Virus record (IMG/VR): IMGVR_UViG_3300045988_162176
Span: 32,001 to 96,000 of that record
Length of the DNA stretch: 64,000 nucleotides
Origin: a virus
Strand: one strand, 5' to 3'
This document shows, piece after piece, positions 50,647 through 64,000 of this stretch. The stretch's first letter is position 1. Each line of letters begins with the position of its first letter. Position numbers and translations under genes: made by a program. The notes beneath the pieces were generated by a model. It saw nothing but the letters and a program-made list of their open reading frames with translations, did not search any database and was not told where the DNA came from.

Positions 50647-50653
50647 ATATATT

Positions 50654-50780
50654 TTCCTTAGCTGGTGGTTCCGATTCGCCCATCCAGAACTCCCTACTTG
50701 AGTGCCATTCTATACTCATTAGAGGCTTTCCGACTGAAGGGTATTTTAATTTATTTATCGTCTTTTAAACTACTAAGGAA
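50654..50780 (-). ncRNA. free-standing I-type tRNA-like spacer RNA (I3)
   Basis: 8-bp closing helix TTCCTTAG/CTAAGGAA, then TA GTTT AAAAG..., the same start as the two anticodon-loop insertions; 3' hairpin CTGGATGG..CCACCAG. Confidence 0.5.
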
Positions 50781-50781
50781 T

Positions 50782-50856
50782 TGGAGCAGAAGACGGGAAT
50801 CGAACCCGCACCTACGACCTCGGAAGCCGTTATTCTCACCATTAAACCACTTCTGC
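50782..50856 (-). tRNA. tRNA-Arg(CCG)
   Basis: Canonical 75-nt cloverleaf, loop TTCCGAG, encoded CCA; first gene after promoter 50887-50915. Confidence 0.9.
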
Positions 50857-50886
50857 AAGGTTGGTTTATCTCTCAACCACATCTTA

Positions 50887-50915
50887 AGTATAACATATAC
50901 TTTTCATCTTGTCAA
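50887..50915 (-). promoter_or_regulatory. promoter of tRNA/E-element operon (Arg-CCG to Sup-CTA)
   Basis: TTGACA-17-TATACT. Confidence 0.65.
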
Positions 50916-51106
50916 GTACTTTTTAAAATTTCTTTTTGGAAGATTTTTTCGTTCAAATTAAGGAGGACAAAAACTTTTTGATACCAAAACAACTCAAGAC
51001 CAAGAAGTTCACAAAGAGCATCAACATCTTTCATTGTATACTTGTCTTTCTTTAAAGCTTTAATTTTTTCAACAATTTCCTCTTCTAAGAATAAAAATTC
51101 GTCCAT
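50912..51106 (-). CDS. hypothetical small protein inside the tRNA island
   Basis: 64-aa ORF; RBS AAGAGGA. Confidence 0.55.
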   Translation of the reverse strand: MDEFLFLEEEIVEKIKALKKDKYTMKDVDALCELLGLELFWYQKVFVLLNLNEKIFQKEILKST

Positions 51107-51143
51107 AATAAAAATCCTCTTTTATTTGGGGAAAAATTCTAAA

Positions 51144-51216
51144 ATGAAGTGGTTGGAATCGAACCAACGACCAGCGAAGATACCCCAACGCCGCTCTACC
51201 CCTGAGCTACACTTCA
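51144..51216 (-). tRNA. atypical tRNA or tRNA pseudogene (defective anticodon arm)
   Basis: Good acceptor, D (GCTC AGGGGTA GAGC) and T (GTTGG TTCGATT CCAAC) arms, but the anticodon arm has only GCG/CGC pairing around TTGGGGTATCTT. Confidence 0.45.
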
Positions 51217-51217
51217 A

Positions 51218-51292
51218 TGGAGCTGGATGAGAATTTTGAAATCTCGACTTCCACTTTACAAGAGTGGCGCTCTGCCTCTGAGCTAATCCAGC
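51218..51292 (-). tRNA. tRNA-Thr(TGT)
   Basis: 75-nt cloverleaf, loop CTTGTAA, encoded CCA. Confidence 0.85.
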
Positions 51293-51317
51293 AAATAAAG
51301 GACTAAACAAATAGTCC

Positions 51318-51833
51318 TTATCCACGAGTACGTTTCCAATAATTTGCCATTTTATATTCAGGCTTATTAGTAACTTCCTCGATAAACACTTCAGGAAAAG
51401 GCCAAACATAACTATTAGCTTCTTCCTCAGAATCAAATTCAACTTCGGCATAATAGAAGGCATTATCAGTTCCGCCATCTACAAGATTGAATTCAATTAA
51501 ATAACCATTATTGTAAAGACCTCTATAATCTTTTACAATAGGATTATAACCAAGTTCATTAAAACAGTCAAACAAAGAATTATCTGTAAGATTTGTTTCA
51601 ATTTCAGTACGAGTTAAAGTACCACCAGACTTGAAAGTAAGAGCATCTGGACGATAACCTTTGCCACTTTCAAACCAACGTCTTATACGAATTTCCTGTG
51701 AAATTTTTCCATCAGAATTATATTTGATATTAATATAAATAGTTTTAACAATTCCGACTTCATCAAAATCGACTTTAGGAAAACCAGAGATTAAAAACTT
51801 ACGTTCGATTTCGATTGAATTATTATTACTCAT
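51318..51833 (-). CDS. CYTH-domain (triphosphate tunnel metalloenzyme) protein
   Basis: 171 aa; N-terminal EIERKFL (ExExK signature), later acidic/basic beta-strand pattern (EIRIRR, YAEVEF). Confidence 0.75.
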   Translation of the reverse strand: MSNNNSIEIERKFLISGFPKVDFDEVGIVKTIYINIKYNSDGKISQEIRIRRWFESGKGYRPDALTFKSGGTLTRTEIETNLTDNSLFDCFNELGYNPIVKDYRGLYNNGYLIEFNLVDGGTDNAFYYAEVEFDSEEEANSYVWPFPEVFIEEVTNKPEYKMANYWKRTRG

Positions 51834-51852
51834 TTTTAATCTCCTTTTTCCA

Positions 51853-51947
51853 TGGCACTAGCGGTAAGATTCGAACTCACGAGACGGATACAAGCCGTCA
51901 CACATCATTTCAAGTGATGGCAGTTATGACCACTTCTGTACGCTAGC
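51853..51947 (-). tRNA. tRNA-Ser(TGA)
   Basis: 95 nt, long variable arm, loop CTTGAAA, encoded CCA. Confidence 0.85.
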
Positions 51948-51954
51948 ATTTATT

Positions 51955-52260
51955 TTATGTTTCAGAGAACAGATAGATACCTTTTTCTCCTACATCCTTT
52001 TTAATATCAGTAAATTCTTTATCACTAATTTGAGTCATTGGAGGGAATACACTTTTGAAAGAAGAACAACCATCTTTTTCAATAGTAACCATTTGTTTCT
52101 TACAAACTGGGCAAGTATAATTCCAAGATAAAAAATTAGTTTCATCCTTAGCAATTTTCATCTCTACTACTTGCATTATTCCCTTATTACAATGAGGACA
52201 TCTATAAACAAACTTTTTATTACTTGCTGTCTAATAAATGTAAGTCTTAAAATTAGTCAT
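51955..52260 (-). CDS. double zinc-ribbon small protein, TAG-recoded
   Basis: MTNFKTYIY*TASNKKFVYRCPHCNKGIMQVVEM...CPVCKK; 102 codons. Confidence 0.6.
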
Positions 52261-52284
52261 TAGAATTTACTTCCTTTTATTTTT

Positions 52285-52372
52285 TGGTTGCTGAAGCATG
52301 GGAGTCGAACCCACTATCGTACAGGGTATGAACCTGACATGATTTATAATTATCCGTTTCACTCGCCAGCAA
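52285..52372 (-). tRNA. atypical tRNA, probable anticodon CAT (Met/Ile2), with extra nucleotides between the D and anticodon arms
   Basis: Starts directly after the CCA of tRNA-Cys; TCAGG TTCATAC CCTGT arm, GTGGG TTCGACT CCCAT T arm, acceptor TTGCTG/CAGCAA, CCA. Confidence 0.5.
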
Positions 52373-52448
52373 TGGTGGACCTGACAAGACTTGAACTTGC
52401 GACTTCCTGCGTGCAAAGCAGACACTCTCCCAACTGAGTTACAGGCCC
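52373..52448 (-). tRNA. tRNA-Cys(GCA)
   Basis: Canonical 76-nt cloverleaf, loop TTTGCAC. Confidence 0.9.
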
Positions 52449-52989
52449 ATAATTAAACTATACTCCCAAATAGCAACAGAGTTTTTTACAAGAACTCTAT
52501 AACTTGGCTTTTGTTGTTCATCCTCAGCACCACCTGTTAGGAGCAATAAGCAGTATGCTCGGCTTATTGTGTTTTAAGGTTACATGACCCATAACCTCAA
52601 TACCTACCCCGATTTAGTTGCAGTAATCAGAGTTTTTGTTTGAACAAGTACGCAACCACTTGTCCCCGTAAACACGGCACAGACTTCTCCGTATAGCTTT
52701 TCGCTGTAGGTTTTTGATGTTACATTCGCACCCTAACATCTCTCGCCATATATCTGTGTTCTGCCCATGTGCGGCTCATAGCCTTTTTCAGCTTGTGACA
52801 GCTTACTTTGCGTTCGAGAACCATTCACTTGTTCTCTACTCCAAGACTTCGGACGGGCGTTGGGGCTTTAGCTTAACGGACTAAAGGTGAGTTCAAATAT
52901 ATGAAACACCGACGAGGCTTTAGCCATCCTTGCTGAATCGGGCAGTTTAATATAAGTTATATTCTCTGTCTGCCAATTGATATATAACT
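52449..52989 (-). ncRNA. large (about 0.54 kb) structured RNA between tRNA-Leu(CAA) and tRNA-Cys (L2)
   Basis: No ORF on the minus strand; markedly G+C-richer; many local and long-range complementary segments. Confidence 0.55.
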
Positions 52990-53074
52990 TGGTGGCTAAG
53001 GTGGGACTTGAACCCACATCTCTTTCGAGGGTTGTACTTGAAGCAACTGCGTATGCCAATTTCGCCACTCAGCC
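52990..53074 (-). tRNA. tRNA-Leu(CAA)
   Basis: 85 nt, long variable arm, loop TTCAAGT, TTCAAGT T-loop, CCA. Confidence 0.85.
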
Positions 53075-53087
53075 ATAATAATTAATA

Positions 53088-53209
53088 CTAGACACGTTTT
53101 TTTTGATATCGGTCATCCAGACATCCCCCGAAGGAGACGGAAGAATCGAACTTCCCCGTTTAATTTTCCATATTAAAGAATCAAGTAATTTTGCTGTGCG
53201 TGTCTACTT
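53088..53209 (-). ncRNA. E-element 5 with a closed-acceptor tRNA-like domain
   Basis: AAG TAGACACG CACAGCAA ... GGAAG TTCGATT CTTCC GTCTCC TTCG GGGGAT ... CGTGTCTA G; ends 12 nt before tRNA-Leu(CAA). Confidence 0.6.
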
Positions 53210-53260
53210 GAAAGGAATTTATATTTGCCTATTAGAAAAATAGGAGCGTCAATCTATTAA

Positions 53261-53392
53261 CTAGACTCATTTTACAAAATCTGTTGCTCTACCAGTTGAG
53301 CTAACTCCCGATGGTCGGGAGCAGAGGATTCGAACCTCCAACACACAGGCCCATAGCATTTGTGATTGTAAAGTTGCTGTTAGAGTCTACTT
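53261..53392 (-). ncRNA. E-element 6 enclosing the permuted tRNA-Gln
   Basis: AAG TAGACTC TAACAGCAA C TTTACAA ... [permuted tRNA] ... TTGTAAA AT GAGTCTA G. Confidence 0.6.
53273..53349 (-). tRNA. circularly permuted tRNA-Gln(TTG)-like module (3' half, CCA, T, 5' half) inside E-element 6
   Basis: CCTGT GTGTT GGAGG TTCGAAT CCTCT GCTCCCG A CCA T CGGGAGT TA GCTC AACTGGTA GAGC A ACAGA TTTTGTA; the acceptor halves are mutually complementary. Confidence 0.6.
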
Positions 53393-53466
53393 GAAAGGAA
53401 TGCTTTTATGAACAATAAAAAATGAACATTAGCTTACAAATAAATTTGTATCTTTACCATGTTTTT

Positions 53467-53495
53467 ACTATAACATAAAATTTTCATTTTGTCAA
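53467..53495 (-). promoter_or_regulatory. promoter of the E6-E5-tRNA-Leu-L2-tRNA-Cys unit
   Basis: TTGACA-17-TATAGT. Confidence 0.65.
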
Positions 53496-53518
53496 GAATT
53501 TTAAAACAAAAATTTTAC

Positions 53519-53603
53519 TGGTGGGTGAGGAAGGTGCCGACCCTTCTACTCCGTTAGGAAAGAGTTTTACAGACTCCCGTGTTTGCCGATTCACTACTCA
53601 CCT
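53519..53603 (-). tRNA. tRNA-Tyr(GTA)
   Basis: 85 nt, long variable arm, loop CTGTAAA; unusual T-loop GTCGGCA. Confidence 0.75.
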
Positions 53604-53633
53604 ATTTAATTATTTTCCTTTTTTAGAAAGGGG

Positions 53634-53698
53634 CTAGACGCTTTTTGTGTATTCTTATTTAACAGATAAGTACATTTAAATTGCTGTAAGCGTCTACT
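53634..53698 (-). ncRNA. E-element 7 (simple, with an anticodon-arm-like hairpin)
   Basis: AG TAGACGC TTACAGCAA ... CTTAT CTGTTAA ATAAG ... GCGTCTA G. Confidence 0.55.
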
Positions 53699-53732
53699 AT
53701 TGAAGTCATTACAAAATTAGCATTTCTGCTAT

Positions 53733-53808
53733 TGGTGCTCATGGAGGGACTCGAACCCTCGACAGACGGCTTAAAAGGCCGCTACTCTACCAACTGAGTT
53801 ACATGGGC
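53733..53808 (-). tRNA. tRNA-Lys(TTT)
   Basis: 76 nt, loop CTTTTAA, one C-A mismatch in the acceptor stem. Confidence 0.85.
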
Positions 53809-53815
53809 ATAAATA

Positions 53816-53951
53816 CTAGAGACATTGTTGTTATGGACTCCTGCCTTAAACCACTTGGCTACATACTTCAACTGAAGACGTTCGGATTCGAACCGAAGAA
53901 TGGGAGTTTGGCTTCTAACATACTTTCAGAATTGCTGTTAGTCTCTACTTT
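53816..53951 (-). ncRNA. E-element 8 with a closed-acceptor tRNA-like domain
   Basis: AAAG TAGAGAC TAACAGCAA ... ACTCC CATTC TTCGG TTCGAAT CCGAA CGTCTTC AGTT GAAG.. GCC AAGTGGTTTAA GGC A GGAGT ... GTCTCTA G. Confidence 0.6.
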
Positions 53952-54119
53952 ATAAATATCTTATTGAAAGGAAATTATTCATATCAGATAGAGAGAAAGG
54001 AGAAATAATATCTCGTCAAATAATTAATTCTTAACCCTTCGATAGATTTAAGTTCCCCTCATTTAAATCCGATAAAACTTACTCACACTATCATAAGAAC
54101 GGATTTCTGATTTGAATAA

Positions 54120-54195
54120 TGGTACTCGGTACGGGGTTCGAACCCGTGCTACTGACGTGAAAGGCCAGTGTCTTAGCCCACTTGACTAACCGAGC
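54120..54195 (-). tRNA. tRNA-Glu(TTC)
   Basis: 76 nt, loop CTTTCAC. Confidence 0.85.
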
Positions 54196-54203
54196 ATATT
54201 AAC

Positions 54204-54324
54204 CTAGACTCTTTTGCGTATTATTCACCACAGAGCGCCCTCTGACGAGAATCGAACTCGCTAATGATTGTTTTGCAGACAATTGTGTTAACCTTTTTAA
54301 GAATTTGCTGTAAGAGTCTACTTT
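54204..54324 (-). ncRNA. E-element 9 with a closed-acceptor tRNA-like domain
   Basis: AAAG TAGACTC TTACAGCAA ... GCGAG TTCGATT CTCGT CAGAG GGCG CTCTG TGG... GAGTCTA G; ends 8 nt before tRNA-Glu. Confidence 0.6.
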
Positions 54325-54353
54325 ATTATTCAGGAGGTTTTACCTATGCACTT

Positions 54354-54382
54354 ATTATAACATATCATCTTTAAGATGTCAA
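54354..54382 (-). promoter_or_regulatory. promoter of the E9-tRNA-Glu-E8-tRNA-Lys-E7-tRNA-Tyr unit
   Basis: TTGACA-17-TATAAT. Confidence 0.65.
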
Positions 54383-54494
54383 CCACTTATTAAAATTTTC
54401 TTTTTGCTTTTTATCTTTTTGAGAAGTTTTTATTTTGCTCTTTTCTTAAGATGTATTTATCTTACCACACTTTTAGATTTCTGTCAAGACTTTA

Positions 54495-54887
54495 TTAGAA
54501 ATTTTCTTTTTCGAAATGATTAGCAAAAGCTATATAATTTTGACTTTTAATAAGCTCCTCAAAAACCTCTACAGGAGGCTCAACAAAGTTTCTAATAAGG
54601 TCTACTAATTCTATCATAGAATTAGCTTCGAGGGTAAAGATTAAACCATCATATGGAATACATCTATAAACCCATTTGCCTGACGTACTTTGATAACAAT
54701 CGGCATTAGTCCAAACTTGAGTAGCATCTAAAATACGAGATTCCCAAGGATATTTAATAATTTCAGAACCTCTTTTATACCAATAATTAAATTCTTTATC
54801 TTTTAAAATATCATTGGTTTCAAGCTCGCACTCGTCGCCATTACAAATAGAATAATGACCGACAATTTTAAATGAAGAAGTATCCAT
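54495..54887 (-). CDS. hypothetical protein
   Basis: 130-aa ORF. Confidence 0.7.
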   Translation of the reverse strand: MDTSSFKIVGHYSICNGDECELETNDILKDKEFNYWYKRGSEIIKYPWESRILDATQVWTNADCYQSTSGKWVYRCIPYDGLIFTLEANSMIELVDLIRNFVEPPVEVFEELIKSQNYIAFANHFEKENF

Positions 54888-55159
54888 TACTCAGTAACCT
54901 CAGCGTAAGTTAATTCCATAATATCAGGCTTAACGGGATAAAATTCACCCTTAATTCCCTTAACAATGTAATCTCCTACAGAAGCACAGTGATAACCTTC
55001 AAGAGTATAAATAATAAGATTCTTTTTAATTCCCTTCATTGTATGTTCAGTAGTAACACAACAATGAGCGCCAACGAAACTTGTAATTTCTTCTTCGTTA
55101 TCGCCAGTCCAGATAATTGCTTGAATAGCAATAGGTTTCTTAATATATGTCTTAATCAT
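54887..55159 (-). CDS. hypothetical small protein
   Basis: 90-aa ORF. Confidence 0.7.
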   Translation of the reverse strand: MIKTYIKKPIAIQAIIWTGDNEEEITSFVGAHCCVTTEHTMKGIKKNLIIYTLEGYHCASVGDYIVKGIKGEFYPVKPDIMELTYAEVTE

Positions 55160-55175
55160 ATCTCTTCACCTTGAC

Positions 55176-55472
55176 TCATCTATATTTATACTTAAGTTGA
55201 CAAGACTTCAACCAAATCCAAAACAAAAGAGAAGCGTCAATTCCATCTACTTCATTCATAATGCGATAATTATCAGAATCTTTTTCAGGATAGCCATAAA
55301 CTACTTGTGCATCATAGCACTAAACAAGATACTTACAATTTGTCTTAGATATAATAGCAAGCTCACTTATATAATTAAATTTATCAACTTTCTTTTCGTA
55401 ATAAGTCCCGAATTTATCTGAAGAGATAAGTTTATATCCATGTTTAGCAAACTGTTTGTCAATATAATCCAT
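55176..55472 (-). CDS. hypothetical small protein, TAG-recoded
   Basis: MDYIDKQFAKHGYKLISSDKFGTYYEKKVDKFNYISELAIISKTNCKYLV*CYDAQVVYGYPEK...; TAG at 55320-55322; 99 codons. Confidence 0.55.
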
Positions 55473-55835
55473 AAAAATACCCTTTTATTTTATTAAATAT
55501 ATAAGGAACAAAAACTGATAACTACTGACAGACCAGCTTTTCACTTATCTGTCCTCGGTTTGGCTGAGGAGGGGCTATTCCTTATAAGGGGCTTACACTC
55601 AACTATCTTGGTCATTTTCATTATCAGTTTTGCTCATTGCATAAGGGTTTAACGTACCCAGTTAAGCAAAGCAACGGTCTTTCTATTGTTACCAGTCCAT
55701 CAGACTTGGAGGGCGGTTCAGTGTCGAATACATTGTAACCAGCTAAACTGTATTCCAAGATAAGTTTCGTACTATATCTTACGGATTTCTTGTTTTTTTA
55801 AAAAGACATCAAGAAATATCTAACCATTCTGTCTT
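55473..55835 (-). ncRNA. structured non-coding region L4
   Basis: About 360 nt without an ORF between E13 and the CDS start at 55472; hairpins (GACAGA..TCTGTC, TCCTC..GAGGA, repeated AGCCCCT). Confidence 0.35.
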
Positions 55836-55936
55836 TTGGAGCGGCATCGAAGAATCGAACTCCAAACATAATAAAAGTATTGTCCATGGCTACTTTTATT
55901 ATTACACCAGTTGCCGCATATTTGCTGTCTCTCCAA
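55836..55936 (-). ncRNA. E-like element 13 enclosing a normal-order tRNA-like RNA with a 12-bp arm
   Basis: TTGGAG AG ACAGCAA ATAT GCGGCAA CTGGTG TAATAATAAAAGTA GCCATGGACAA TACTTTTATTATG TT TGGAG TTCGATT CTTCG ATGCCGC TCCAA. Confidence 0.4.
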
Positions 55937-56010
55937 GCTGTCACCGCTAATATGGTTGTAGGTTCTGGACGGTCTGAACTTAGGTGCGCCATACACACAT
56001 CCTAACATTA

Positions 56011-56123
56011 AGCGATACTCCATCTGTTAGGCGAACTTCCATCTTTATAAGACGGTATCGTAGTTACTGGACCTCATAATTGGATTCGAACCAACTTCCT
56101 CTCCCGATGTGGCTGTTATCGCT
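56011..56123 (-). ncRNA. E-element 12 (divergent) with a tRNA-like domain
   Basis: AGCGATA ACAGCC ... GTTGG TTCGAAT CCAAT TTATGAG ..21 nt.. CTTATAA ... TATCGCT. Confidence 0.45.
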
Positions 56124-56509
56124 AAGGAGCTACCTTAGTGTTTATTCAACATCAGTTATCGAGAATGCACCATTACACTAATGGGGATATAAATGTTATA
56201 GACCTTTTAACTATAACTCACAGGCTTTCCCTTATTCAAACAAGGTGGCGGGACGTGTGCTGTGTTTTTAAAAGAAAGTCCTTGTTATACTTTTTCTTTC
56301 AAGGATTTAGTGGTAAGAACTTTTCTTGACCATAGGCGTTCTCAAACCTACTCCTTTACCTATATGCTCAACATAAATTAGGTTAAGCATCTCAACCTTG
56401 AGGTCAACTGGGGTATCTTACAGCCGTTCGGTTTATTTTTAGTTTGAGTAAACCTTCCTCAAACACTCCTTCATCCACTTTTTTACAAGGATACGGAATC
56501 CACGAGTTT
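56124..56509 (-). ncRNA. structured non-coding region L3
   Basis: About 385 nt without an ORF between tRNA-Ser(GCT) and E12; dense hairpins (GTTTGAG..CTCAAAC, ATGCTTAAC..GTTGAGCAT, GTTATAG..CTATAAC). Confidence 0.4.
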
Positions 56510-56597
56510 TGGCGCAGATAACAGGATTCGAACCTGTATTACCTTACGGTAAGCGGCTGTAGCAGAGCCGTGAGATAGCCAATTACTCCATATCTGC
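56510..56597 (-). tRNA. tRNA-Ser(GCT)
   Basis: 88 nt, long variable arm CTTACCGTAAGG, loop CTGCTAC. Confidence 0.85.
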
Positions 56598-56609
56598 ATA
56601 ATGAGCAAT

Positions 56610-56737
56610 CTTGACACTTTTTTCTAGCCAACCACGGTTAACCATTCCTTGCTCAAGGGATACGTTAATAAGGAGTCGAACCTTACACGACGTTATTCCA
56701 AAAACATAAAATAAATTTGCTGTGAGTGTCAACTTTT
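56610..56737 (-). ncRNA. E-element 10 with a tRNA-like domain
   Basis: AAAAG TTGACAC TCACAGCAA ... TAAGG TTCGACT CCTTA TTAAC..CCTT GAGC AAGG..GTTAA ... GTGTCAA G; ends 12 nt before tRNA-Ser(GCT). Confidence 0.55.
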
Positions 56738-56755
56738 GTTTAAATTTAAGTCTGA

Positions 56756-56833
56756 TGGTGGGAATAACAGGACTCGAACCTGTAAGCCTCCGCCGTGTAA
56801 AGGCGGCATTCTAACCAGTTGAACTATACTCCC
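56756..56833 (-). tRNA. tRNA-Val(TAC)
   Basis: 78 nt, loop TTTACAC. Confidence 0.85.
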
Positions 56834-56972
56834 ATATAATATTGGTTTTTACGTTAAATACCAGAGGACTTTCGTATTTTACCAACAAACCTCACGTTAC
56901 TTGACTTATTTATAGACGTTGAGTAATTACGTCTCAACAATACATTTATTAAGATAAGAAAGGAAAATTATC

Positions 56973-57419
56973 TTAGCCTACTGCTTCTTCAGTTACAGTA
57001 TCTTCATCAGGGATAACATTACCAGTGTTATCAATCTTGTCATTCGAAGGAACAGGATTGGTGTTTTGAAGCTGGCTCTCCTTCAATTTTTCATCATGAA
57101 GTTCACGATTCACCTCATAAACAGCGGCTTCAATAGCCTTACGAACTTCATCTGCATCAAGAGTGATACCAAGAGCTTCCATCTGCTGATTAAAATACTT
57201 TGTTGCTTCCTGCAAGCGCTTTTCAATTTCCCGTGGGAACATCTGCTCAACAGCCTTAACTGCAATCAAAGCATACTTATGAATAAGTTCTGCTTGAGTA
57301 AGAGCATGATTAACATCGTCCAACTTACCCTTCTTCTTAAGATAAGGAATAAGGACAACTGTAAAAATCAAAGAGCACAAACCAATTACAGCAACTACGA
57401 TAGGGGTAATATCAGTCAT
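56973..57419 (-). CDS. membrane-anchored protein
   Basis: 148 aa; N-terminal TM helix; downstream of promoter 57447-57475. Confidence 0.75.
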   Translation of the reverse strand: MTDITPIVVAVIGLCSLIFTVVLIPYLKKKGKLDDVNHALTQAELIHKYALIAVKAVEQMFPREIEKRLQEATKYFNQQMEALGITLDADEVRKAIEAAVYEVNRELHDEKLKESQLQNTNPVPSNDKIDNTGNVIPDEDTVTEEAVG

Positions 57420-57446
57420 TTTTCGTACTTCCTTTTTACATTTTGA

Positions 57447-57475
57447 ATTATAGCATCTAACAAACGCTTTGTCAA
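57447..57475 (-). promoter_or_regulatory. sigma-70-type promoter
   Basis: TTGACA-17-TATAAT. Confidence 0.65.
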
Positions 57476-57497
57476 GTGTTTATTAAATAAAATTTGA

Positions 57498-57631
57498 TGG
57501 AGCAAGATACGAGATTCGAACTCGCCCTTACGGTTTTGGTCCTTTAAGTAAGACTTGAACTTACATCAATGGTTTTTCATTAAACTATTAAAGGGGAAGA
57601 CCGTCGTGCTAACCACTAACACTAATCCTGC
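57498..57631 (-). tRNA. tRNA-Gly(TCC)-like interrupted by a 58-nt insertion in the anticodon loop
   Basis: GCAGGAT TA GTGT TAGTGGTTA GCAC G ACGGT CTTCC[58 nt]AA ACCGT AAGG GCGAG TTCGAAT CTCGT ATCTTGC T CCA. Confidence 0.7.
57537..57594 (-). ncRNA. tRNA-shaped insertion (I-type element I2) inside the tRNA-Gly anticodon loop
   Basis: CCTTTAA TA GTTT AATGA AAAC CATTGAT GTAAG TTCAAGT CTTAC TTAAAGG ACCA; homologous to I1 with a covarying 7-bp helix. Confidence 0.6.
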
Positions 57632-57781
57632 ATATATGATGCCACTCACGCATGAATGGCATCAAACCCCACGCTCCGTAGAGACCTCATGCTAGCCTGA
57701 TAGGTTTCCTACTAAGATACCAGTAAAGTAATGAGCTTAACCAGACAAACGTAGACTTAACCAGTGGAGTATCTAGCTTAA
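57632..57781 (-). ncRNA. structured leader upstream of the interrupted tRNA-Gly
   Basis: 150 nt without an ORF; hairpin GATGCCA..TGGCATC; repeated CTGGTTAAG. Confidence 0.3.
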
Positions 57782-58252
57782 TTAATATTCAAGAACATCC
57801 CATTCACAATAATAAATATTATGACTCATAAGATAAGAATTAAGAATGTCTTCTTCAGATTGATTTCTAAGTTTCTCAATTTTTTGTTCTAAGTCCTTGA
57901 TATAAAAACTTTTTCTTTCAATCTCTTTTGTATATTTGCGCAACTTTGCCTTTACATCTTTAAGTAAAACATAAAGACGCTTTTGCTGGTCATCAGAAAG
58001 AGTTGCTAACGAATCCAAAGATTCCATTAAATCATTCTTTCTCTGACAATATTCTTTATGCTGTTCAATATAAGGTTGTCGTTCTTTTTTAGCAATTTCT
58101 ACCTTGTCTGTAAGATATTTAATATCTTCACAAAGTTTAACACTTGCTTCAAGAAAATAACTCTGCTTATCTTTAAGCATAGCTTCTTCAGTCATCACTG
58201 CATCGACAGAAGATTCTTCATACCAACCTGTATACTTAAGCCAAACTTTCAT
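57782..58252 (-). CDS. hypothetical coiled-coil protein
   Basis: 156-aa ORF. Confidence 0.7.
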   Translation of the reverse strand: MKVWLKYTGWYEESSVDAVMTEEAMLKDKQSYFLEASVKLCEDIKYLTDKVEIAKKERQPYIEQHKEYCQRKNDLMESLDSLATLSDDQQKRLYVLLKDVKAKLRKYTKEIERKSFYIKDLEQKIEKLRNQSEEDILNSYLMSHNIYYCEWDVLEY

Positions 58253-58254
58253 AA

Positions 58255-58728
58255 TTACTTTTTCACCGAAGTCACGCCATTAAAATCATACAAACGTACA
58301 ATATGGCTTAGTCCTAAAGTGTCAGAAATATCAGCACTAATGATAGACCAATCTCCACCAGCAAGACCACACCCAATCATATAAGGCATAGCAATCTCTT
58401 CTCCAATAGGAATCATTTCACGAATCTTAAGAAGACATTCATGAAAATATTCATAGTTGGTGTTTACATTTGGTCCACCAATGCCAATCTGAGAAAACAT
58501 ATTAAGAAAAACTTTATCTTTGTTTTCCTCAATTCGAAGAACTTTACCATAAAGCTCTTCAGGAGTATGATAACTACAAAACTTATTATACTCCAAATAA
58601 ACATGAGGATAATTCTTCTTAATTTGAAGAGCAACACCAGCGCCCATTACACCAAAGGTATTAGCCTGATGACAAATATACTTTGCCGAAGTCTTAAGGA
58701 CATCGCCTTGAATAATAGACACTGACAT
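58255..58728 (-). CDS. macro-domain protein (ADP-ribose binding/hydrolase fold)
   Basis: 157 aa; IIQGDVL...YICHQANTFGVMGAGVALQIKKNYP...IGCGLAGGDW. Confidence 0.75.
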   Translation of the reverse strand: MSVSIIQGDVLKTSAKYICHQANTFGVMGAGVALQIKKNYPHVYLEYNKFCSYHTPEELYGKVLRIEENKDKVFLNMFSQIGIGGPNVNTNYEYFHECLLKIREMIPIGEEIAMPYMIGCGLAGGDWSIISADISDTLGLSHIVRLYDFNGVTSVKK

Positions 58729-58739
58729 AACCTTCTCCT

Positions 58740-59027
58740 TTATTCTTTATCTGTTTCTTGCAAATTTTCTTGCAACTTCTTATAATACATATGATAAGAA
58801 TCAAAGTATTTAAGAAGAAATTCTTTATAAACTTTAGCGACATAATTAGCAGAACCCACAGGAAAATCAAGACCCAAATCTTCTGCAATAATATCTACAG
58901 CTTTTCTCAAAGGCTCAGGAGGGATATTATTCAGTTTAAACTTTTTAGTTTCTGAATCATTATCACACCAAGCTTTGCCATTTACAACCGTTAAAAACCT
59001 AATTGAAGGATTCTTAGAGAGTTCCAA
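58740..59027 (-). CDS. hypothetical protein (TTG start)
   Basis: The longer ORF to 59060 overlaps a promoter-like site at about 59051-59079; TTG preceded by GAGGAA. Confidence 0.5.
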   Translation of the reverse strand: MELSKNPSIRFLTVVNGKAWCDNDSETKKFKLNNIPPEPLRKAVDIIAEDLGLDFPVGSANYVAKVYKEFLLKYFDSYHMYYKKLQENLQETDKE

Positions 59028-59109
59028 CTTGTGTTCCTCACTTCTCTTATAGGGTAACACAGATGTTTAAATCTGTCAAGTATTTAATAAAAGAAATTTT
59101 TTATTTCTC

Positions 59110-59346
59110 CTACTTTTTATTATCATCAAATTTGCCAGAATGGATAGCTTTTCTACTGACAAACTTTGCCGCAGAAAATATAAATACAAACAAGGGAAAG
59201 AAAAATACACCTAAAGATTCAAATGACTCAGAAAAATCCCAATAGTCTTCATCTTCTTCTGCAATGCACTTCATTACACGAGCAAAGAAAATCCACAGAA
59301 TATGATTAAGAATTATAAGAATTGTAATAATCAACCACTTAGGCAT
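59110..59346 (-). CDS. small membrane protein
   Basis: 78 aa, two hydrophobic helices. Confidence 0.65.
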   Translation of the reverse strand: MPKWLIITILIILNHILWIFFARVMKCIAEEDEDYWDFSESFESLGVFFFPLFVFIFSAAKFVSRKAIHSGKFDDNKK

Positions 59347-59359
59347 ATTAATTCCTTTC

Positions 59360-59435
59360 TGGCACGCCTACCGAGACTCGAACTCAGAACTAATCTTTAG
59401 GAGAGATTTGTTTTATCCAGTTAGACTATAGACGT
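59360..59435 (-). tRNA. tRNA-Arg(CCT)
   Basis: 76 nt, loop CTCCTAA. Confidence 0.85.
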
Positions 59436-59440
59436 ATACC

Positions 59441-59875
59441 TTATTTTTTCTTTTTGGGTACAGCTTCAGCTACAAAAAGAACAGGATTCTCATTTTCATC
59501 ATATGTAACTATGGCTTCCATTTCAGCCTTTACATTAAAAGAAGCTGTTTTTAAATATCTACCACAAAAACTTCCATGAAGATTAGAAAGATTCTCATAG
59601 TTATAATCCAAATTGTTTTGAACACTAATCCCCATTGTTGCTAATGTGATAAATACATCATATTTTTCTTTAGGTTTTTCTATAAAACCAGTATACCCAT
59701 CACATTTATACCTAACATAAATAGGCAAATTATCTTTCATATTTAAGTCAACAAAACTTAAATCATAAAATTTTGTGTGGCAATATGGACATTCATAATT
59801 AGAATTAGCTGAATACTTTTGATGACAACAAGGACAAGTAACCTAATTACGATATCTAAAACTCTTCTTAGACAT
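59441..59875 (-). CDS. zinc-ribbon protein, TAG-recoded
   Basis: MSKKSFRYRN*VTCPCCHQKYSANSNYECPYCHTKFYDLSFVDLNMKDNLPIYV...; 145 codons in frame with ORF 59441..59740. Confidence 0.6.
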
Positions 59876-59883
59876 AATTTACC

Positions 59884-60246
59884 TCATACTGTAAAACAAG
59901 ACACGGGAATTTTTGTAGAATTCTTTTCTTCCATAACATAAAAAGAAACATTTGAAAGCTTAATATTATTCCACTCTTCTTTAGTTTTAGAAGAATACTT
60001 GGGCCAAAAAAGCCCTTCAAATGTTACAAAATTGTTTTCAGGGTCAACATAAAGAGTCCTTACAAACCCAACAACCCTATCTGCAACAGTTTTCTCTTCA
60101 TAAACTACTTCTTCACAAATAGGAGTCCTAAAGCAATCTTTAAGACCTTCCCACATTGCATCTGTAAGCCAATCCCCCAACTCATCTCTCTTTAGAGTAA
60201 ACTCTTGAGTTAGAAACTTTTCATCAGGAGAGTAATTTTCAGCCAT
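59884..60246 (-). CDS. hypothetical protein
   Basis: 120-aa ORF. Confidence 0.7.
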   Translation of the reverse strand: MAENYSPDEKFLTQEFTLKRDELGDWLTDAMWEGLKDCFRTPICEEVVYEEKTVADRVVGFVRTLYVDPENNFVTFEGLFWPKYSSKTKEEWNNIKLSNVSFYVMEEKNSTKIPVSCFTV

Positions 60247-60550
60247 TGTTCATTTCCTCAAAAGGAGTAGTATCCTTAGTGGGAGTACCAATAACACTGA
60301 GAACAGGAGTAAGATTGCCTTCAACATCAGAACAATAATAAAGCCAACCATTCATATCAGAAACGATATGATAAACACGATTCTGCTCATTCTTCACCAT
60401 GTAGCCAGTATCAGTAAAACCAACAGGAACACTATCCACATCAGCCCCGATACTATTCTTGCTATTGTTACAACCAGACAGTGCCAAAATTGCAACAAAA
60501 GCCACAATAACAAGAAGACCAGCAACAAACTTATTCCAACTCTTCTGCAT
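60239..60550 (-). CDS. putative lipoprotein
   Basis: 103 aa; signal peptide ending in the lipobox LALSGC. Confidence 0.7.
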   Translation of the reverse strand: MQKSWNKFVAGLLVIVAFVAILALSGCNNSKNSIGADVDSVPVGFTDTGYMVKNEQNRVYHIVSDMNGWLYYCSDVEGNLTPVLSVIGTPTKDTTPFEEMNNG

Positions 60551-60586
60551 AATTAATTCCTCACTTTTAAATAGATTTTTATTCTT

Positions 60587-60662
60587 TGGTCTGAGTGGCG
60601 AGGCTCAAACTCACGACCTCATGGTCCCAAACCACGCGCTCTATCAACTGAGCTACACCCAG
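60587..60662 (-). tRNA. tRNA-Pro(TGG)
   Basis: 76 nt, loop TTTGGGA. Confidence 0.85.
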
Positions 60663-60796
60663 AAATGTGTGGGCGAGTTATAAATCAATTCATAGTACAG
60701 GTACTACTATTTTCTAACTTCCCTCGCCTCAAGTTTGTTCAAACAATCTATTTTCTAAAAAATTAAAAAATTTTTTGTTTGCTAATAATATAAAAA

Positions 60797-61546
60797 TTAT
60801 CTTTTGATTTTGTTTACAATTTCATTTAGGAATTTTGCTGGGGAAGAATTTTCTTCAAGATAATTGCTTCCATTAATAAAACTATCAAAAGACTCGTCAA
60901 AAGCTACTTCTATCGACTTTTTTTTATTGTCAATTAAATCATCAAATTTTTGATATGCCAAACCAAAATTATATCCCCAATTATAAGACCTTATGCGATT
61001 ATTGTTTAAACTCGTTGATGCTAAAGCTCCAAATTCACAAGCTAATCCAAAAAGCACGGCAGTTTTCCTACTATTTACTTCTGCTATATCAAAAGTCTTA
61101 AAAGTTTCTAGATACTGACCAGAAGCCATTAATTGAATAGTATTAGAAAGTGTTTGTACAGCCTCAATTTTATTGCCTAAAGGAAGATAACATTCAGTTA
61201 AATTTTTAAAAGCGGCAGCAATTAAACCCCCTCCAGCCAAAATTGCCGCAGCCTCACCAAATTTTTTGTGAGTTGTTTCTCTATCACGACGATAATTATC
61301 ATTATCCATACAAGGTAAATCATCATAAATCAAGCTCATATTGTGAATATATTCTATAGCCATTGCATAAGAAATTGCATCCTGTGCATTTCCTCCATAA
61401 AATTCACACCATGCAAGCGTCATATATGGTCTAAGACGTTTACCTTCTTGTAACGCATAATTCTCTACAGGCCCAAGATAATCTTCAAATTTATTTTCTT
61501 GTAAATAGTCTTCAATTATTTTCTCGTATTTTTTTTGCAAATCCAT
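60797..61546 (-). CDS. polyprenyl (farnesyl/geranylgeranyl) diphosphate synthase
   Basis: Start at MDLQKKYEK; first Asp-rich motif LIYDDLPCMDNDNYRR, second FDDLID, KRLRP near the N-terminus. Confidence 0.85.
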   Translation of the reverse strand: MDLQKKYEKIIEDYLQENKFEDYLGPVENYALQEGKRLRPYMTLAWCEFYGGNAQDAISYAMAIEYIHNMSLIYDDLPCMDNDNYRRDRETTHKKFGEAAAILAGGGLIAAAFKNLTECYLPLGNKIEAVQTLSNTIQLMASGQYLETFKTFDIAEVNSRKTAVLFGLACEFGALASTSLNNNRIRSYNWGYNFGLAYQKFDDLIDNKKKSIEVAFDESFDSFINGSNYLEENSSPAKFLNEIVNKIKR

Positions 61547-61601
61547 GTTATTTTCTCTCAATTCAATTTGTTTAATTCAAAGTCTATTTTGTAAAAATGA
61601 A

Positions 61602-61689
61602 TGGTACTGGTGAAGGGAATCGAACCCTCACGATATAAATATCAACAGATTTTAAGTCTGCACTGTCTACCAGTTCCAGCACACCAGCA
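61602..61689 (-). tRNA. tRNA-Leu(TAA)
   Basis: 88 nt, long variable arm, loop CTTAAAA; own promoter 61717-61745. Confidence 0.85.
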
Positions 61690-61716
61690 TATTTTCTTTT
61701 CCCTTTCGATATGATA

Positions 61717-61745
61717 ATCATAACATACAATCATCAAATTGTCAA
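61717..61745 (-). promoter_or_regulatory. promoter of tRNA-Leu(TAA)
   Basis: TTGACA-17-TATGAT. Confidence 0.6.
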
Positions 61746-61749
61746 GGCT

Positions 61750-61958
61750 TTAATAAAACTTTCTTTTTATTTTCTTTAGAGTGTTTATCTTAGATGTGTA
61801 CCCAAAACCGTTAAAATGGTACACTCGCTACCTTTTAATTTTATAGTTGGGAAGGTGTCTTTTGGCAACATATTACGCACCCTGAGTAAGCAAGGCCGTT
61901 GAACCACATTTCTCTATGAGTTATCTTACTTTTCTCACAGCTACCGATTAACCAACTG
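61750..61958 (-). ncRNA. about 200-nt promoter-driven non-coding RNA (N2)
   Basis: Promoter 61966-61994; no ORF; closing helix AGTTGG..CCAACT and hairpin GTGTACC..GGTACAC; ends at the next promoter. Confidence 0.45.
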
Positions 61959-61965
61959 TATATTT

Positions 61966-61994
61966 ATATTACCACACAAACACTATTTTGTCAA
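61966..61994 (-). promoter_or_regulatory. promoter of ncRNA N2
   Basis: TTGACA-17-TAATAT. Confidence 0.6.
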
Positions 61995-62004
61995 TAGTTT
62001 AATA

Positions 62005-62304
62005 CTAAAATTCTGACTTTTTCAATGTAGGAGTAATATCTAAATTAGAATTTGCACTTGTACGAGTATAAGTAGAACCAGCCCAATCTGACCCCCAGAT
62101 GTCAGCCTTGGTAGTAACATACTTCTTATATTTGCAAGAAAGTTTTACAGAAAGACACTCAGGATAATCTTTAATACTTTTTTTGAGCTCATTAAAAGAT
62201 TCTTCTGCTTTGACCACATCCTCTGTGTATTTACAAATTGCTTCGTTTTCACATCCTGAACAAACACTTGGAATATATTCTCGACCTGTATTAAGTACCA
62301 TCAT
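62005..62304 (-). CDS. hypothetical Cys-containing protein
   Basis: 99-aa ORF; ends at TAG (read-through adds 2 codons). Confidence 0.65.
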   Translation of the reverse strand: MMVLNTGREYIPSVCSGCENEAICKYTEDVVKAEESFNELKKSIKDYPECLSVKLSCKYKKYVTTKADIWGSDWAGSTYTRTSANSNLDITPTLKKSEF

Positions 62305-62818
62305 TGTTTTCTTCTCCTTCCTTATAATATTCTTGTAAAATCAAATTATAACATAGCGTATTAGGATGATAATATGGATTATCATAAATCTGACTATCAT
62401 CCCCAGTAAAACATTTCATAATACCAGCACAAACACCAGAAGAACGACTAATGCCAGCATTACAATGAACAATAATTACATCAACCTTATCCCACCACTT
62501 ATTGACAAAATCAATAACTTTTTTAGCATCTTCTTTTGTCATCAGTTGATAAATACGAGACTCATAAACAAAACCATCTGAATTAGTATAGTTTTCTACA
62601 ATTAGACCTTCATCCTTCTTCCAGTACTGCATACCCTTATAGGGCTGAATATCATCAAAGAAAAGAGATAATTGAGCCTTAATATTATTAAATTTATTAG
62701 GAAGTTGACGCACGCCAATCTCGATAGAATCATTAATGCTAATTACAACAGAATTCTCTTCATGAGAACCATAGCTATATTTAACACAATCTCTACGACT
62801 CATAACCTTAAACTGCAT
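62291..62818 (-). CDS. Cys-based (PTP/dual-specificity-like) phosphatase
   Basis: 175 aa; active-site signature VHCNAGISRS (HCx5R[ST]). Confidence 0.75.
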   Translation of the reverse strand: MQFKVMSRRDCVKYSYGSHEENSVVISINDSIEIGVRQLPNKFNNIKAQLSLFFDDIQPYKGMQYWKKDEGLIVENYTNSDGFVYESRIYQLMTKEDAKKVIDFVNKWWDKVDVIIVHCNAGISRSSGVCAGIMKCFTGDDSQIYDNPYYHPNTLCYNLILQEYYKEGEENNDGT

Positions 62819-62848
62819 CGGAAAAATCTCCTTTCTTATTTATATAAT

Positions 62849-63187
62849 TTAATCTAAACTTATTTTACGTCTATATCTACATTCTCTGACAAACCAATCT
62901 TGCAATTCTTTTACAGTCATTGGTTTTGGGGGTGGTTCTAATTTATATTCTCCATTTTCATCCAAAGGTTGACCAGTATAACAATAAGCTCTAACATAAC
63001 ATTCTGCCGCAGGAACCATATCTTCTGGATTTTTTACATAATGGTCAGCTATAAATCCAACCGCAAATTTTCCAGCAGTAGTATAAGTTTTTACGTGCCT
63101 TGACAGGCAAAGATATTGTCCTCTATCAACTGGCTTATTATTATATTTGTATTCTCCTAAAGCACAACCAACATCCCACAGTTCCAT
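62849..63187 (-). CDS. hypothetical protein
   Basis: 112-aa ORF. Confidence 0.65.
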   Translation of the reverse strand: MELWDVGCALGEYKYNNKPVDRGQYLCLSRHVKTYTTAGKFAVGFIADHYVKNPEDMVPAAECYVRAYCYTGQPLDENGEYKLEPPPKPMTVKELQDWFVRECRYRRKISLD

Positions 63188-63275
63188 ATAATAATCTGTA
63201 TCTGTAGGATAAATCTTTGTGCCTTTTACATTTAGATTGCTAAAATCAATTAACTACTTTGCTCTTGCAATATTT

Positions 63276-64000
63276 TTAAACAGACTCATTGGTAAATACC
63301 TTCTGACTAATAAAGTCTTTACCTTCTTCACTTGTTAAAATTGGCATTTCATAATCAAGAATCCACTTATAACGAATAGCCTCCTGACCATCTTTGCCAA
63401 TAACAGTAGTAGGAACACGATATGCACAAGTACCACGTTTCTCTACTGTTGTATAATCGTTCCAGTTTACACCCTTTTCAGTAAACATCTTATCCTGTAA
63501 TTTGGTAGTATTAATACCATGAAGTTCTTTTTGAGAATACAAAGATTGAGCAACTGCCTGAATAGAATTTCGAGTACAATCCTGCTGTCTCCAAACAAAA
63601 TAATTATGCACTTCAAAGGCAGGGACAACAAATACTCTACTATCAAAGGTGGGCATTTCTTTTCCCTTACGAACCATTTTCCAATCGTAAGAATCTTGAT
63701 TCATATTAAAGATATCTAAGGTTGTATCAATAATAGTATTCTCGGCAAAATAATTATTAAACCAAAGAGTACAAAGAGCCGCAGATGTACTAACAATTTT
63801 TTGAATATTATTGTCAAACCATGGCTGAGAATTTCTTTCGCTCTGAATCATGACAAGAGAAATTTCATCTGACTCAACATAACCAAACTTAACATTTGGA
63901 ATAATTTCACAGAGCTTAAGCATAGTCTGTTGCATGGTTTTAACAAAAATAGGGTCAAAAGGTTTCTTCATACCACGGCAGAATGAATGAAAATGAGCTC
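63276..64000 (-). CDS. Thg1-like protein (tRNA-His guanylyltransferase family 3'-5' nucleotidyltransferase), N-terminus beyond the window
   Basis: GYVESDEISLV, FDSRVFVVP..EVHNYFVWRQQDCTRNS match Thg1/TLP motifs; the frame stays open upstream of the listed Met to position 64000 (..AHFHSFCRGMKKPFDP). Confidence 0.8.
   Translation of the reverse strand, partial: AHFHSFCRGMKKPFDPIFVKTMQQTMLKLCEIIPNVKFGYVESDEISLVMIQSERNSQPWFDNNIQKIVSTSAALCTLWFNNYFAENTIIDTTLDIFNMNQDSYDWKMVRKGKEMPTFDSRVFVVPAFEVHNYFVWRQQDCTRNSIQAVAQSLYSQKELHGINTTKLQDKMFTEKGVNWNDYTTVEKRGTCAYRVPTTVIGKDGQEAIRYKWILDYEMPILTSEEGKDFISQKVFTNESV

Follow-up and report, generated by a model that had tools for sequence, protein, structure and literature searches.

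What is a second, tRNA-shaped sequence doing inside the anticodon loop of a phage tRNA gene? The question is raised by a tRNA-Gly(UCC) gene in positions 32,001 to 96,000 of the IMG/VR virus record IMGVR_UViG_3300045988_162176, a stretch of 64,000 nucleotides (nt) to which we refer as the window. A first-pass annotation, made from the sequence alone, had proposed that this gene is split after nucleotide 36 by a tRNA-shaped element that ends in ACCA, and alleles of the gene with an empty site, together with ARAGORN, bear this out. The element has exact boundaries and a covarying tRNA-like fold, it extends from the start of its terminal helix to four nucleotides beyond that helix, and it belongs to a phage family that is restricted to anticodon loops. 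The gene, like a second interrupted gene for tRNA-Ile, lies on the minus strand, which corrects the annotation. Its parts are as follows.

57498-57631, minus strand: complete interrupted tRNA-Gly(UCC) gene with encoded CCA, 134 nt (from the sequence, ARAGORN on the spliced form, and the fold)
57595-57631, minus strand: exon 1, with the acceptor 5' strand, D arm, anticodon-stem 5' strand and loop CTTCC; tRNA positions 1-36 (boundary from uninterrupted alleles)
57537-57594, minus strand: 58-nt tRNA-like insert (putative intron) between nucleotides 36 and 37 (Rfam tRNA, model R1, presence/absence polymorphism)
57498-57536, minus strand: exon 2, with loop AA, anticodon-stem 3' strand, variable loop, T arm, acceptor 3' strand, U73 and CCA

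Read along the minus strand, the first part of the gene is GCAGGAT TA GTGT TAGTGGTT AGCAC G ACGGT CTTCC, followed by the 58 nt, and the part after the insert is AA ACCGT AAGG GCGAG TTCGAAT CTCGT ATCTTGC T CCA. When the 58 nt are left out, ARAGORN calls the remaining 76-nt sequence tRNA-Gly(tcc), a cloverleaf with the 7-nt anticodon loop CTTCCAA; the same loop, with anticodon TCC, had been read by the annotation and recurs in the uninterrupted alleles. We take U73, G1-C72 and C2-G71 of the outer gene to be consistent with bacterial tRNA-Gly identity elements. The minimum-energy fold of the 134 nt is one cloverleaf nested in another (z = -2.2). In its default mode, ARAGORN finds 17 tRNA genes in the window, all on the minus strand between 49.6 and 61.7 kilobases (kb), and overlooks the interrupted Gly gene; in intron mode it reports this gene as 'SeC(tca)' with a shifted intron, a reading that is refuted because the empty-site alleles have the loop CTTCCAA. 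According to ARAGORN, the sole Gly and Ile tRNAs of the array in the window are the two interrupted genes.

The boundaries and the authenticity of the insert were established by comparison with related phages, using 14 IMG/VR contigs found through a neighbouring macro-like protein (92-99% identity at that protein). Four loci (L002, L009, L010 and L099) contain the same tRNA-Gly without the insert, with ACGGTCTTCC joined directly to AAACCGT, and because of these empty-site alleles the insertion is placed exactly between nucleotides 36 and 37. At L011, an uninterrupted tRNA-Gly is called by ARAGORN that was missed by the search for empty and filled Gly alleles. The 58-nt insert of the window is also present in L003 and L013, while nine loci have a 69-nt version with an extra hairpin of 6 base pairs (bp), capped by GAAA, at the place of the anticodon arm; two G·U pairs in this hairpin in L004 and L005 argue for selection at the RNA level. 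For the Gly, Glu, Gln and Thr genes, there are alleles that lack the insert and whose exons are otherwise identical. At the DNA level, the insert behaves as a mobile or recombining insertion that is present or absent among near-identical phages. The identical interrupted Gly gene occurs in ENA ERZ27296301 (contig k119_55060, 214,176 bp), in Logan SRR1930145 and in IMG/VR contigs, so the assembly artefact that the annotation had allowed for as a refutation is excluded. In ERZ28635101, the Gly gene is empty and the Glu gene is interrupted.

The insert reads CCTTTAA TA GTTT AATGAA AAAC CATTGAT GTAAG TTCAAGT CTTAC TTAAAGG ACCA. Its elements, and the sister locus in the same array, are listed below.

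57588-57594, minus strand: acceptor-like helix, 5' strand CCTTTAA, whose first base is the 5' junction (7/7 pairing with 57541-57547)
57572-57585, minus strand: D-like arm GTTT-AATGAA-AAAC (4/4 pairs change on both sides across inserts)
57548-57564, minus strand: T arm GTAAG-TTCAAGT-CTTAC, abutting the acceptor 3' strand (invariant bases and a covarying stem)
57541-57547, minus strand: acceptor-like helix, 3' strand TTAAAGG
57537-57540, minus strand: 3' tail ACCA (discriminator plus CCA), with the 3' junction after the last A
49955-50090, minus strand: sister locus, tRNA-Ile(UAU) with a 59-nt insert (49995-50053) at 36/37 (Rfam tRNA, 51.8 bits over 49958-50090)

The pairing of CCTTTAA with TTAAAGG ahead of ACCA and the T arm are thus as first described, with all seven pairs formed. 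The insert has no anticodon arm. The Rfam tRNA model (RF00005) scores the insert alone at 41.6 bits over 57540-57594 (gathering score 29; E = 2e-5 for the window), and despite this score ARAGORN makes no tRNA call on it; the Gly insert is a tRNA-like top half and not a decoding tRNA. Its sequence has the features of an RNase P/RNase Z substrate, namely a stack of acceptor and T arm, a T loop and a 3' NCCA. A covariance model built for the inserts (R1) gives 71 bits at 57537-57594 and 68.7 bits on the Ile insert at 49995-50053, and the spliced Ile gene is called tRNA-Ile(tat) by ARAGORN. A pattern common to the two inserts occurs twice in the window, against 0.01 occurrences expected. The proposed homology of the two insertions therefore holds for their architecture and not for an identical length, and their shared position at 36/37, followed by AA, is correct for these two genes and does not extend to the family as a whole.

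This family proved to be far larger than the pair from which it had been proposed: further members were sought beyond the window and found in many kinds of tRNA and in many unrelated viral contigs. We gathered at least 51 distinct inserts of 50-135 nt from about ten kinds of phage tRNA and many metagenomes. All 51 lie in anticodon loops, at sites from 32/33 to 36/37, and their exact removal leaves a perfect 7-nt loop and an intact cloverleaf. Nested members with the D-arm/T-arm pattern were also found in other contigs and samples (L020, L049, L052, L054 and L074). In the clade of the window phage, inserts of 50-87 nt occupy several further tRNA genes, at these sites:

tRNA-Ile(UAU): 36/37, and a different insert at 32/33
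tRNA-Glu(UUC): 36/37
tRNA-Lys(UUU): 34/35 and 35/36, in two different genes
tRNA-Pro(UGG): 34/35
tRNA-Thr(UGU): 34/35
tRNA-Gln(UUG): 35/36

The position in the host loop is free, and the ends of the insert are fixed. In every insert, the first base is base 1 of the 7-nt helix strand; in the inserts of the clade, the 3' strand of this helix ends four bases before the insert does and is abutted by a T arm of the 5-7-5 form. The junctions thus match the 5' end (+1) and the 3' end (A76) of a mature tRNA. We tested this rule on 93 distinct long-intron tRNA candidates called by ARAGORN in 211 viral and assembly loci. In 69 of the 93, the first 7 nt pair 7/7 with a strand near the intron end, and each of these, with the intron exactly removed, becomes a tRNA whose 7-nt anticodon loop contains the junction. 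As first parsed, 55 of the 69 tails were NCCA, six were single-substitution variants (ACAA, ACCG, CCCT), one was 1 nt long and seven appeared to be 2 nt long; in the last seven the ARAGORN intron was 2 nt too short, and they resolve to 4 nt (six NCCA, one ACCG). The regularity of helix start and 4-nt tail means that the junction tracks the intron's own ends. The NCCA tail is retained in six of seven nested genes that lack an encoded CCA (one of them, L151, with an unassigned outer tRNA), so the idea that the tail mirrors the CCA state of the host tRNAs is not supported, although L049 fits it, with a CCA-less intron in a CCA-less array. The NCCA is the intron's own feature, and its retention would be expected if it helped RNase P to bind, marked the site of the 3' cut, or did both.

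Only 7 of the 51 inserts receive an ARAGORN tRNA call of their own, mostly with aberrant loops, and one of these is a plausible tRNA(CUA). It is a 75-nt element at 36/37 of a tRNA-Ile(UAU) (L203:2828, IMGVR_UViG_3300045988_106809), a complete tRNA(CUA) according to ARAGORN, and judging by its sequence it could be a functional suppressor tRNA carried inside another tRNA.

The fold of the inserts is maintained by compensatory change. We aligned 20 distinct inserts by fixed offsets from independently defined junctions, with the D-arm columns placed by eye; the sequences are related. Standard pairs occupy all 312 pair cells, and both sides change in 14 of the 16 pairs, including all 7 of the acceptor-like helix. 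The covariation score of 0.83 compares with 0.26 in shuffles (0/500 reach 0.83) and with 0.12-0.19 in slid controls. The suggestion that the two window helices, different in sequence and complementary in both cases, are compensatory evidence thus holds across the 20 inserts. G53, U54, C56, A58 and C61 of the T arm are invariant, and the T stem covaries. The D arm and the central region are variable or missing; two members of 50 nt have no D arm, which makes it dispensable. What is conserved is the acceptor/T-arm stack, the T loop and NCCA, and an acceptor helix with a T arm is the module recognised by RNase P, RNase Z and the CCA-adding enzyme.

A generic scan provided an independent view of the family. 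Its pattern is agnostic of sequence (inner T loop, 12 nt, CCA, 14-20 nt, outer T loop), and matches were validated by an inner helix of 7/7 pairs and by ARAGORN, which had to call a tRNA joined within its anticodon loop once the insert was exactly removed. At least 39 distinct nested inserts in viral contigs pass this 7/7 validation. With pairing of at least 6/7, 38 of 117 pattern matches were validated in new viral loci, and 0 of 130 in bacterial and archaeal genomes with the same pattern and filter, both among the matches listed; the insert family is so far phage-specific. Many of the non-nested matches come from another arrangement, seen in unrelated viral contigs (L182, L175, L179, L171 and others), in which a 'minihelix' of T arm and acceptor 3' strand that ends in NCCA lies about 15 nt downstream of a full tRNA.

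Among the matches listed, the 38 distinct inserts lie at 35/36 (14), 34/35 (12), 36/37 (10) and 32/33 (2), and never at 33/34 or 37/38. The base that precedes them is U in 28, C in 8, A in 2 and G in none, and their own first base is G in 22 and C in 16, so that the first pair is always G-C or C-G. A base before the cut that is mostly U and never G, with such a first pair, fits RNase P substrates. The gene most often interrupted is that of tRNA-Lys(UUU), with 12 of the 38 nested inserts compared to 34 of 1420 uninterrupted tRNAs (2.4%) at the same loci. The outer tRNAs show no decay, with 21.0 stem pairs per gene against 21.2 in uninterrupted tRNAs, a comparison in which detection favours intact genes; pairs per gene were counted since ARAGORN brackets mark paired positions only, which makes mismatch counts uninformative. 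Diverged outer tRNAs of unrelated contigs likewise keep their structure around the insert.

The only precedent that full-text literature searches brought up is a set of reports on Lak megaphages, and neither megablast of 3.5 kb nor blastn of the interrupted gene found a relative among GenBank phages. Devoto et al. 2019 (PMC6784885) described 'enigmatic' introns in Lak megaphage tRNAs, one of which 'may itself encode a tRNA', and offered no mechanism for them. As in our family, these introns lie in anticodon loops of phage tRNA genes (Tyr, Phe, Thr, Gly-UCC), occur in some genomes and not in close relatives, and are overlooked by bacterial-mode tRNA finders (PMC6784885); in our own reading of Table S6 of that paper, they also have an acceptor-like helix that abuts a T arm. 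By the same reading they differ in being 79-114 nt long, in beginning with a 5' hairpin and an A-rich ATTAAA linker, so that the 5' junction is not at the acceptor helix, and in having a 3' tail of 2-3 nt (CA, ACA or CTA) and not NCCA. The phage studied here is unrelated to Lak, with a genome of about 214 kb, 32% G+C and protein relatives in Bacillus and Enterococcus phages. The insert is therefore a more minimal form of a known but unexplained kind of phage tRNA intron. Five points are new as far as could be found: a boundary rule that holds across the family, insertion at variable loop positions, covariation, the preference for Lys(UUU) and the contrast between phages and cells.

How, then, could the gene give a tRNA? 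Our best inference from these sequences is that the 58 nt may be an intron at the RNA level which mimics the top half of a tRNA and whose own ends would define the splice sites. RNase P would cut at the start of the intron's acceptor helix, leaving exon 1 to end at C36 with a 3'-OH. An endonuclease of tRNA 3' ends would cut directly past A76 of the intron, so that exon 2 would start at A37 with a 5'-phosphate; this is the least certain step, and its candidate enzyme is of the RNase Z/BN type, able to cut behind a CCA that is part of the gene. The exon halves would be held together by the outer cloverleaf, and an adenosine triphosphate-dependent RNA ligase of the anticodon-loop repair kind (T4 Rnl1-like) would join them to give GGUCUUCC followed directly by AAACCGU. 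The excised piece would be freed as a mature-looking mini-tRNA, which may have a role of its own. The need for an anticodon-loop ligase could explain why inserts are tolerated in anticodon loops only. It is established which ends RNase P and RNase Z leave, and that Rnl1 prefers nicks in anticodon loops with 3'-OH and 5'-phosphate ends. We give an even chance to this particular combination of RNase P, an RNase Z-type cut and an RNA ligase, and consider it probable, more broadly, that excision is set by the intron's tRNA-like ends and followed by ligation.

Several observations weigh against the RNase P/RNase Z pathway. Only some RNase Z/BN enzymes are documented to cleave right behind a CCA that is encoded, and many RNase Z enzymes, that of Bacillus subtilis among them, are inhibited by CCA; it is in Bacillus and Enterococcus phages that the proteins of this phage have their closest relatives. 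The natural tail variants ACAA, ACCG, TTCA and CCCT, which keep the length and not the sequence, do not follow from such a model. At 32/33, a single unpaired base lies between the outer anticodon stem and the RNase P site. In the Lak introns, the tRNA-like part is preceded on its 5' side by an additional 25-30 nt, which the pathway alone would not explain. Searches of the 64-kb window (Pfam, PHROGs) and of the 10 kb on each side of it, all but about 130 kb of the 214-kb source contig, turned up no gene for an RNA ligase, a polynucleotide kinase, RtcB or RNase Z, and phmmer with T4 Rnl1 and Rnl2 sequences gave no match in 3470 open reading frames (ORFs) from 2.1 Mb around nested tRNAs.

Alternatively, the tRNA-like intron could be recognised by a dedicated endonuclease, possibly phage-encoded, that would leave 2',3'-cyclic phosphate and 5'-OH ends for an RtcB-type ligase to join. 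The boundary rule and the conserved fold need just a nuclease that measures structure, many RNase Z enzymes would have difficulty with a 3' cut after CCA, and the 5' extension of the Lak introns hints at another recogniser; moreover, Thg1-like, DSP-like phosphatase, CYTH and macro-like genes cluster by the tRNA array, and many ORFs of the window are of unknown function. We nevertheless consider this quite unlikely: neither a candidate nuclease nor RtcB was found in the window or its 10-kb flanks, the conserved features are exactly the minimal substrate of RNase P, and the presence of the family in many unrelated phage lineages favours universal host enzymes. It is also possible that the insert is no intron at all, and is instead a selfish or functional mini-tRNA whose host gene is inactivated or serves as a carrier, with halves that are never rejoined. 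Alleles with and without the insert both occur, which shows that neither form is essential; mini-tRNAs of this architecture that stand alone (L026, L036, L051) suggest that the small RNA may have its own role, and no ligase was found in the DNA searched. This alternative appears unlikely given that all 51 inserts sit in anticodon loops from which their removal restores an intact tRNA, that the outer tRNAs are paired as well as uninterrupted ones (with the detection bias noted above) and keep their structure when diverged in unrelated contigs, and that the window's only Gly and Ile array tRNAs are the interrupted ones.

The clean insertion without target duplication, the precise empty sites and the presence of a TnpB gene with a RAGATH-18 RNA in the window (29047-30317) could point to a miniature transposon acting at the DNA level, for instance a hairpin-ended IS200/IS605 derivative mobilised in trans, in which the tRNA look would be incidental. 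Such an origin is disfavoured and very improbable. An IS200/IS605 derivative would have a fixed 4-5-nt target beside one end and conserved subterminal hairpin sequences; here, neither strand shows a conserved target motif, flanks vary among members, terminal sequences are wholly different with pairing alone kept, helices contain G·U pairs, the T-loop invariants and the NCCA tail are conserved, and no TnpA transposase was seen in the window (Pfam). Membership in a known class of intron has a negligible probability and is refuted by the features tested, even though self-splicing group I introns and archaeal-type bulge-helix-bulge introns both occur in tRNA anticodon loops. The family's sites run from 32/33 to 36/37 and never include 37/38. 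A group I intron was rejected for an insert of 58 nt with no Rfam group I match at E <= 1 and with A, not G, as its last base; no group I intron or self-cleaving ribozyme family was detected in 49000-62500 (Rfam, E <= 1). A bulge-helix-bulge motif would have two 3-nt bulges around a 4-bp helix; in the fold, the outer anticodon stem is instead separated from the 7-bp inner helix by an internal loop of 5 x 6.

For excision directed by the insert's own tRNA-like ends, the most likely working likeness is found in tRNA punctuation of mitochondrial polycistrons and in the mascRNA of MALAT1, where a tRNA-shaped module in a longer RNA directs RNase P and RNase Z to cut at its own ends, as is established for both. 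In both cases the flanks are released unjoined, whereas here they are two tRNA halves that need ligation to be useful. That step recalls repair by T4 Pnkp and Rnl1, for which a 3'-OH/5'-P nick in the anticodon loop is the natural Rnl1 substrate; it differs in that the DNA searched yielded no homologue of Rnl1, Rnl2 or Pnkp and that the PrrC site 33/34 is unused among the matches listed. tRNA-Lys(UUU) is a classical target of anticodon nucleases and repair, and the Lys(UUU) bias may tie the spread of the family to such damage and its repair. Bacterial group I introns are likewise mobile and located in anticodon loops of bacterial-type tRNA genes, but they are about 200 nt or more, with a P3-P8 core, self-splicing and a 3' G, and the 58-nt insert has no such core. 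Archaeal and eukaryal bulge-helix-bulge introns share the protein-dependent cut and ligation and, in archaea, non-canonical positions; they are recognised through an exon-intron helix, whereas the insert would be seen via its own tRNA shape, lacks the motif and occurs in bacterial phages. Y RNAs of the YrlA type are also tRNA mimics without a decoding anticodon, and a YrlA-like RNA lies in the same tRNA array; YrlA is, however, circularly permuted (a loop-closed acceptor, ends at the anticodon position) and free-standing, while the insert has open acceptor ends and is nested. There is, on these sequence comparisons, slightly less than an even chance that the inserts represent a third tRNA splicing route beside group I and bulge-helix-bulge, in which mobile top-half mimics would rely on universal end-processing enzymes and an anticodon-loop ligase.

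The tRNA array contains further structured RNAs. The element I3 (50654-50780, minus strand), which the first-pass annotation had suggested aligning with the two inserts, gives no match to model R1 at E <= 1, so that its membership in the family is not supported. It has an 8-bp terminal helix (TTCCTTAG/CTAAGGAA) and an insert-like TAGTTTAAAAG start, is nearly invariant in the clade with a diverged version in L006 and L011, and has no Rfam match; it is a separately conserved, structured and uncharacterised RNA. The YrlA-like circularly permuted tRNA-like RNA is located at 53268-53366 (minus strand; 39.8 bits, below the gathering score of 69, E = 6e-6), and with a 588-aa DUF2828/DUF7788 vWA protein at 36030-37796 (minus strand), whose Enterococcus phage relatives are annotated 'RNA-binding protein', it may form a pair of Ro-like protein and Y RNA. 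The ARAGORN call 'Thr(tgt) i(38,85)' (53130-53309), which runs across the YrlA-like RNA and a stretch resembling a promoter, is spurious. We also rejected as a nested intron the 119-nt 'Val(cac) i(30,46)' at 56068-56186 (minus strand), which is a conserved free-standing tRNA-like RNA with acceptor CCCCAT/ATGAGG, T arm GTTGG-TTCGAAT-CCAAT and a U-CCA end, miscalled as Val, Ile and Ala by ARAGORN in intron mode. Its long central arm has a CTAAGG-UAGC-UCCUUAG hairpin, and a similar GGG-UAGC-UCCC is found in the 87-nt Thr insert of L012.

Free-standing mini-tRNAs of 65-66 nt (GTCATAA...TTATGGC, then TACC or TACT) with the architecture of the nested inserts occur in the tRNA arrays of other phages, on unrelated contigs (L026:3992-4056, L036:6066-6131 on the minus strand, L051:3882-3947, L055:7698-7763, L092:683-748). 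A stem of 3-4 bp replaces their anticodon arm, with a GAAA cap in the 66-nt versions, and those of L026 and L051 begin 2-3 nt after tRNA-Ala. The window array also has a tRNA with anticodon CUA at 49679-49749 (minus strand), an amber suppressor that ARAGORN labels 'Pyl'; TAG is the stop of just 5 of 91 long minus-strand ORFs, and the ORFs of the window become only slightly longer with TAG recoded. A 17-nt motif, GTAGACNCTTACAGCAA, has 11 copies on the minus strand against 0.03 expected, most of them between tRNA genes (including 49918-49934, 50172-50188, 50524-50540, 53681-53697 and 54305-54321), and is possibly a phage-specific promoter or processing signal.

Among the protein-coding genes, a cluster related to RNA and nicotinamide adenine dinucleotide lies beside the array (62291-63971, minus strand), with a Thg1-like 3'-5' nucleotidyltransferase and a cysteine (DSP-type) phosphatase. 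The cluster continues outside the window (L097/L001, just past its end) with a WGR-PARP-like protein, macro-like proteins, a UvrD helicase and ThyX, and a weak macro-like ORF is found at 58255-58728. The TnpB gene (OrfB_IS605 and a Cas12f1-like TNB domain) spans 29166-30317 (minus strand) and adjoins the RAGATH-18 RNA at 29047-29119 (59.9 bits). At least four paralogous ORFs with the N-terminal motif MKQIRKNVFETNSSS-H-L (38743-39342, 42046-42489, 42897-43529 and 44778-45326, minus strand) adjoin a radical-SAM gene; they have no Pfam match, and PHROGs, searched with 42897-43529 only, gave none.

In the window, the interrupted Gly and Ile genes are either missed by ARAGORN or, in intron mode, reported as 'SeC', 'Trp' and similar. 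Since bacterial-mode tRNA finders miss or mislabel interrupted genes, phage tRNA repertoires and the codon-usage inferences drawn from them are incomplete. The nested tRNA-like modules could serve RNA engineering as compact, enzyme-defined excision cassettes. With the boundary rule, the 'enigmatic' phage tRNA introns can be cast as a hypothesis open to direct test, namely splicing by RNase P, a 3'-end nuclease and a ligase; if that hypothesis is true, there would be a new splicing pathway in the bacterial world. The family would then be a mobile element of 50-135 nt that encodes no protein, persists by mimicking the processing signals of its host gene and spreads among tRNA genes and phage lineages.

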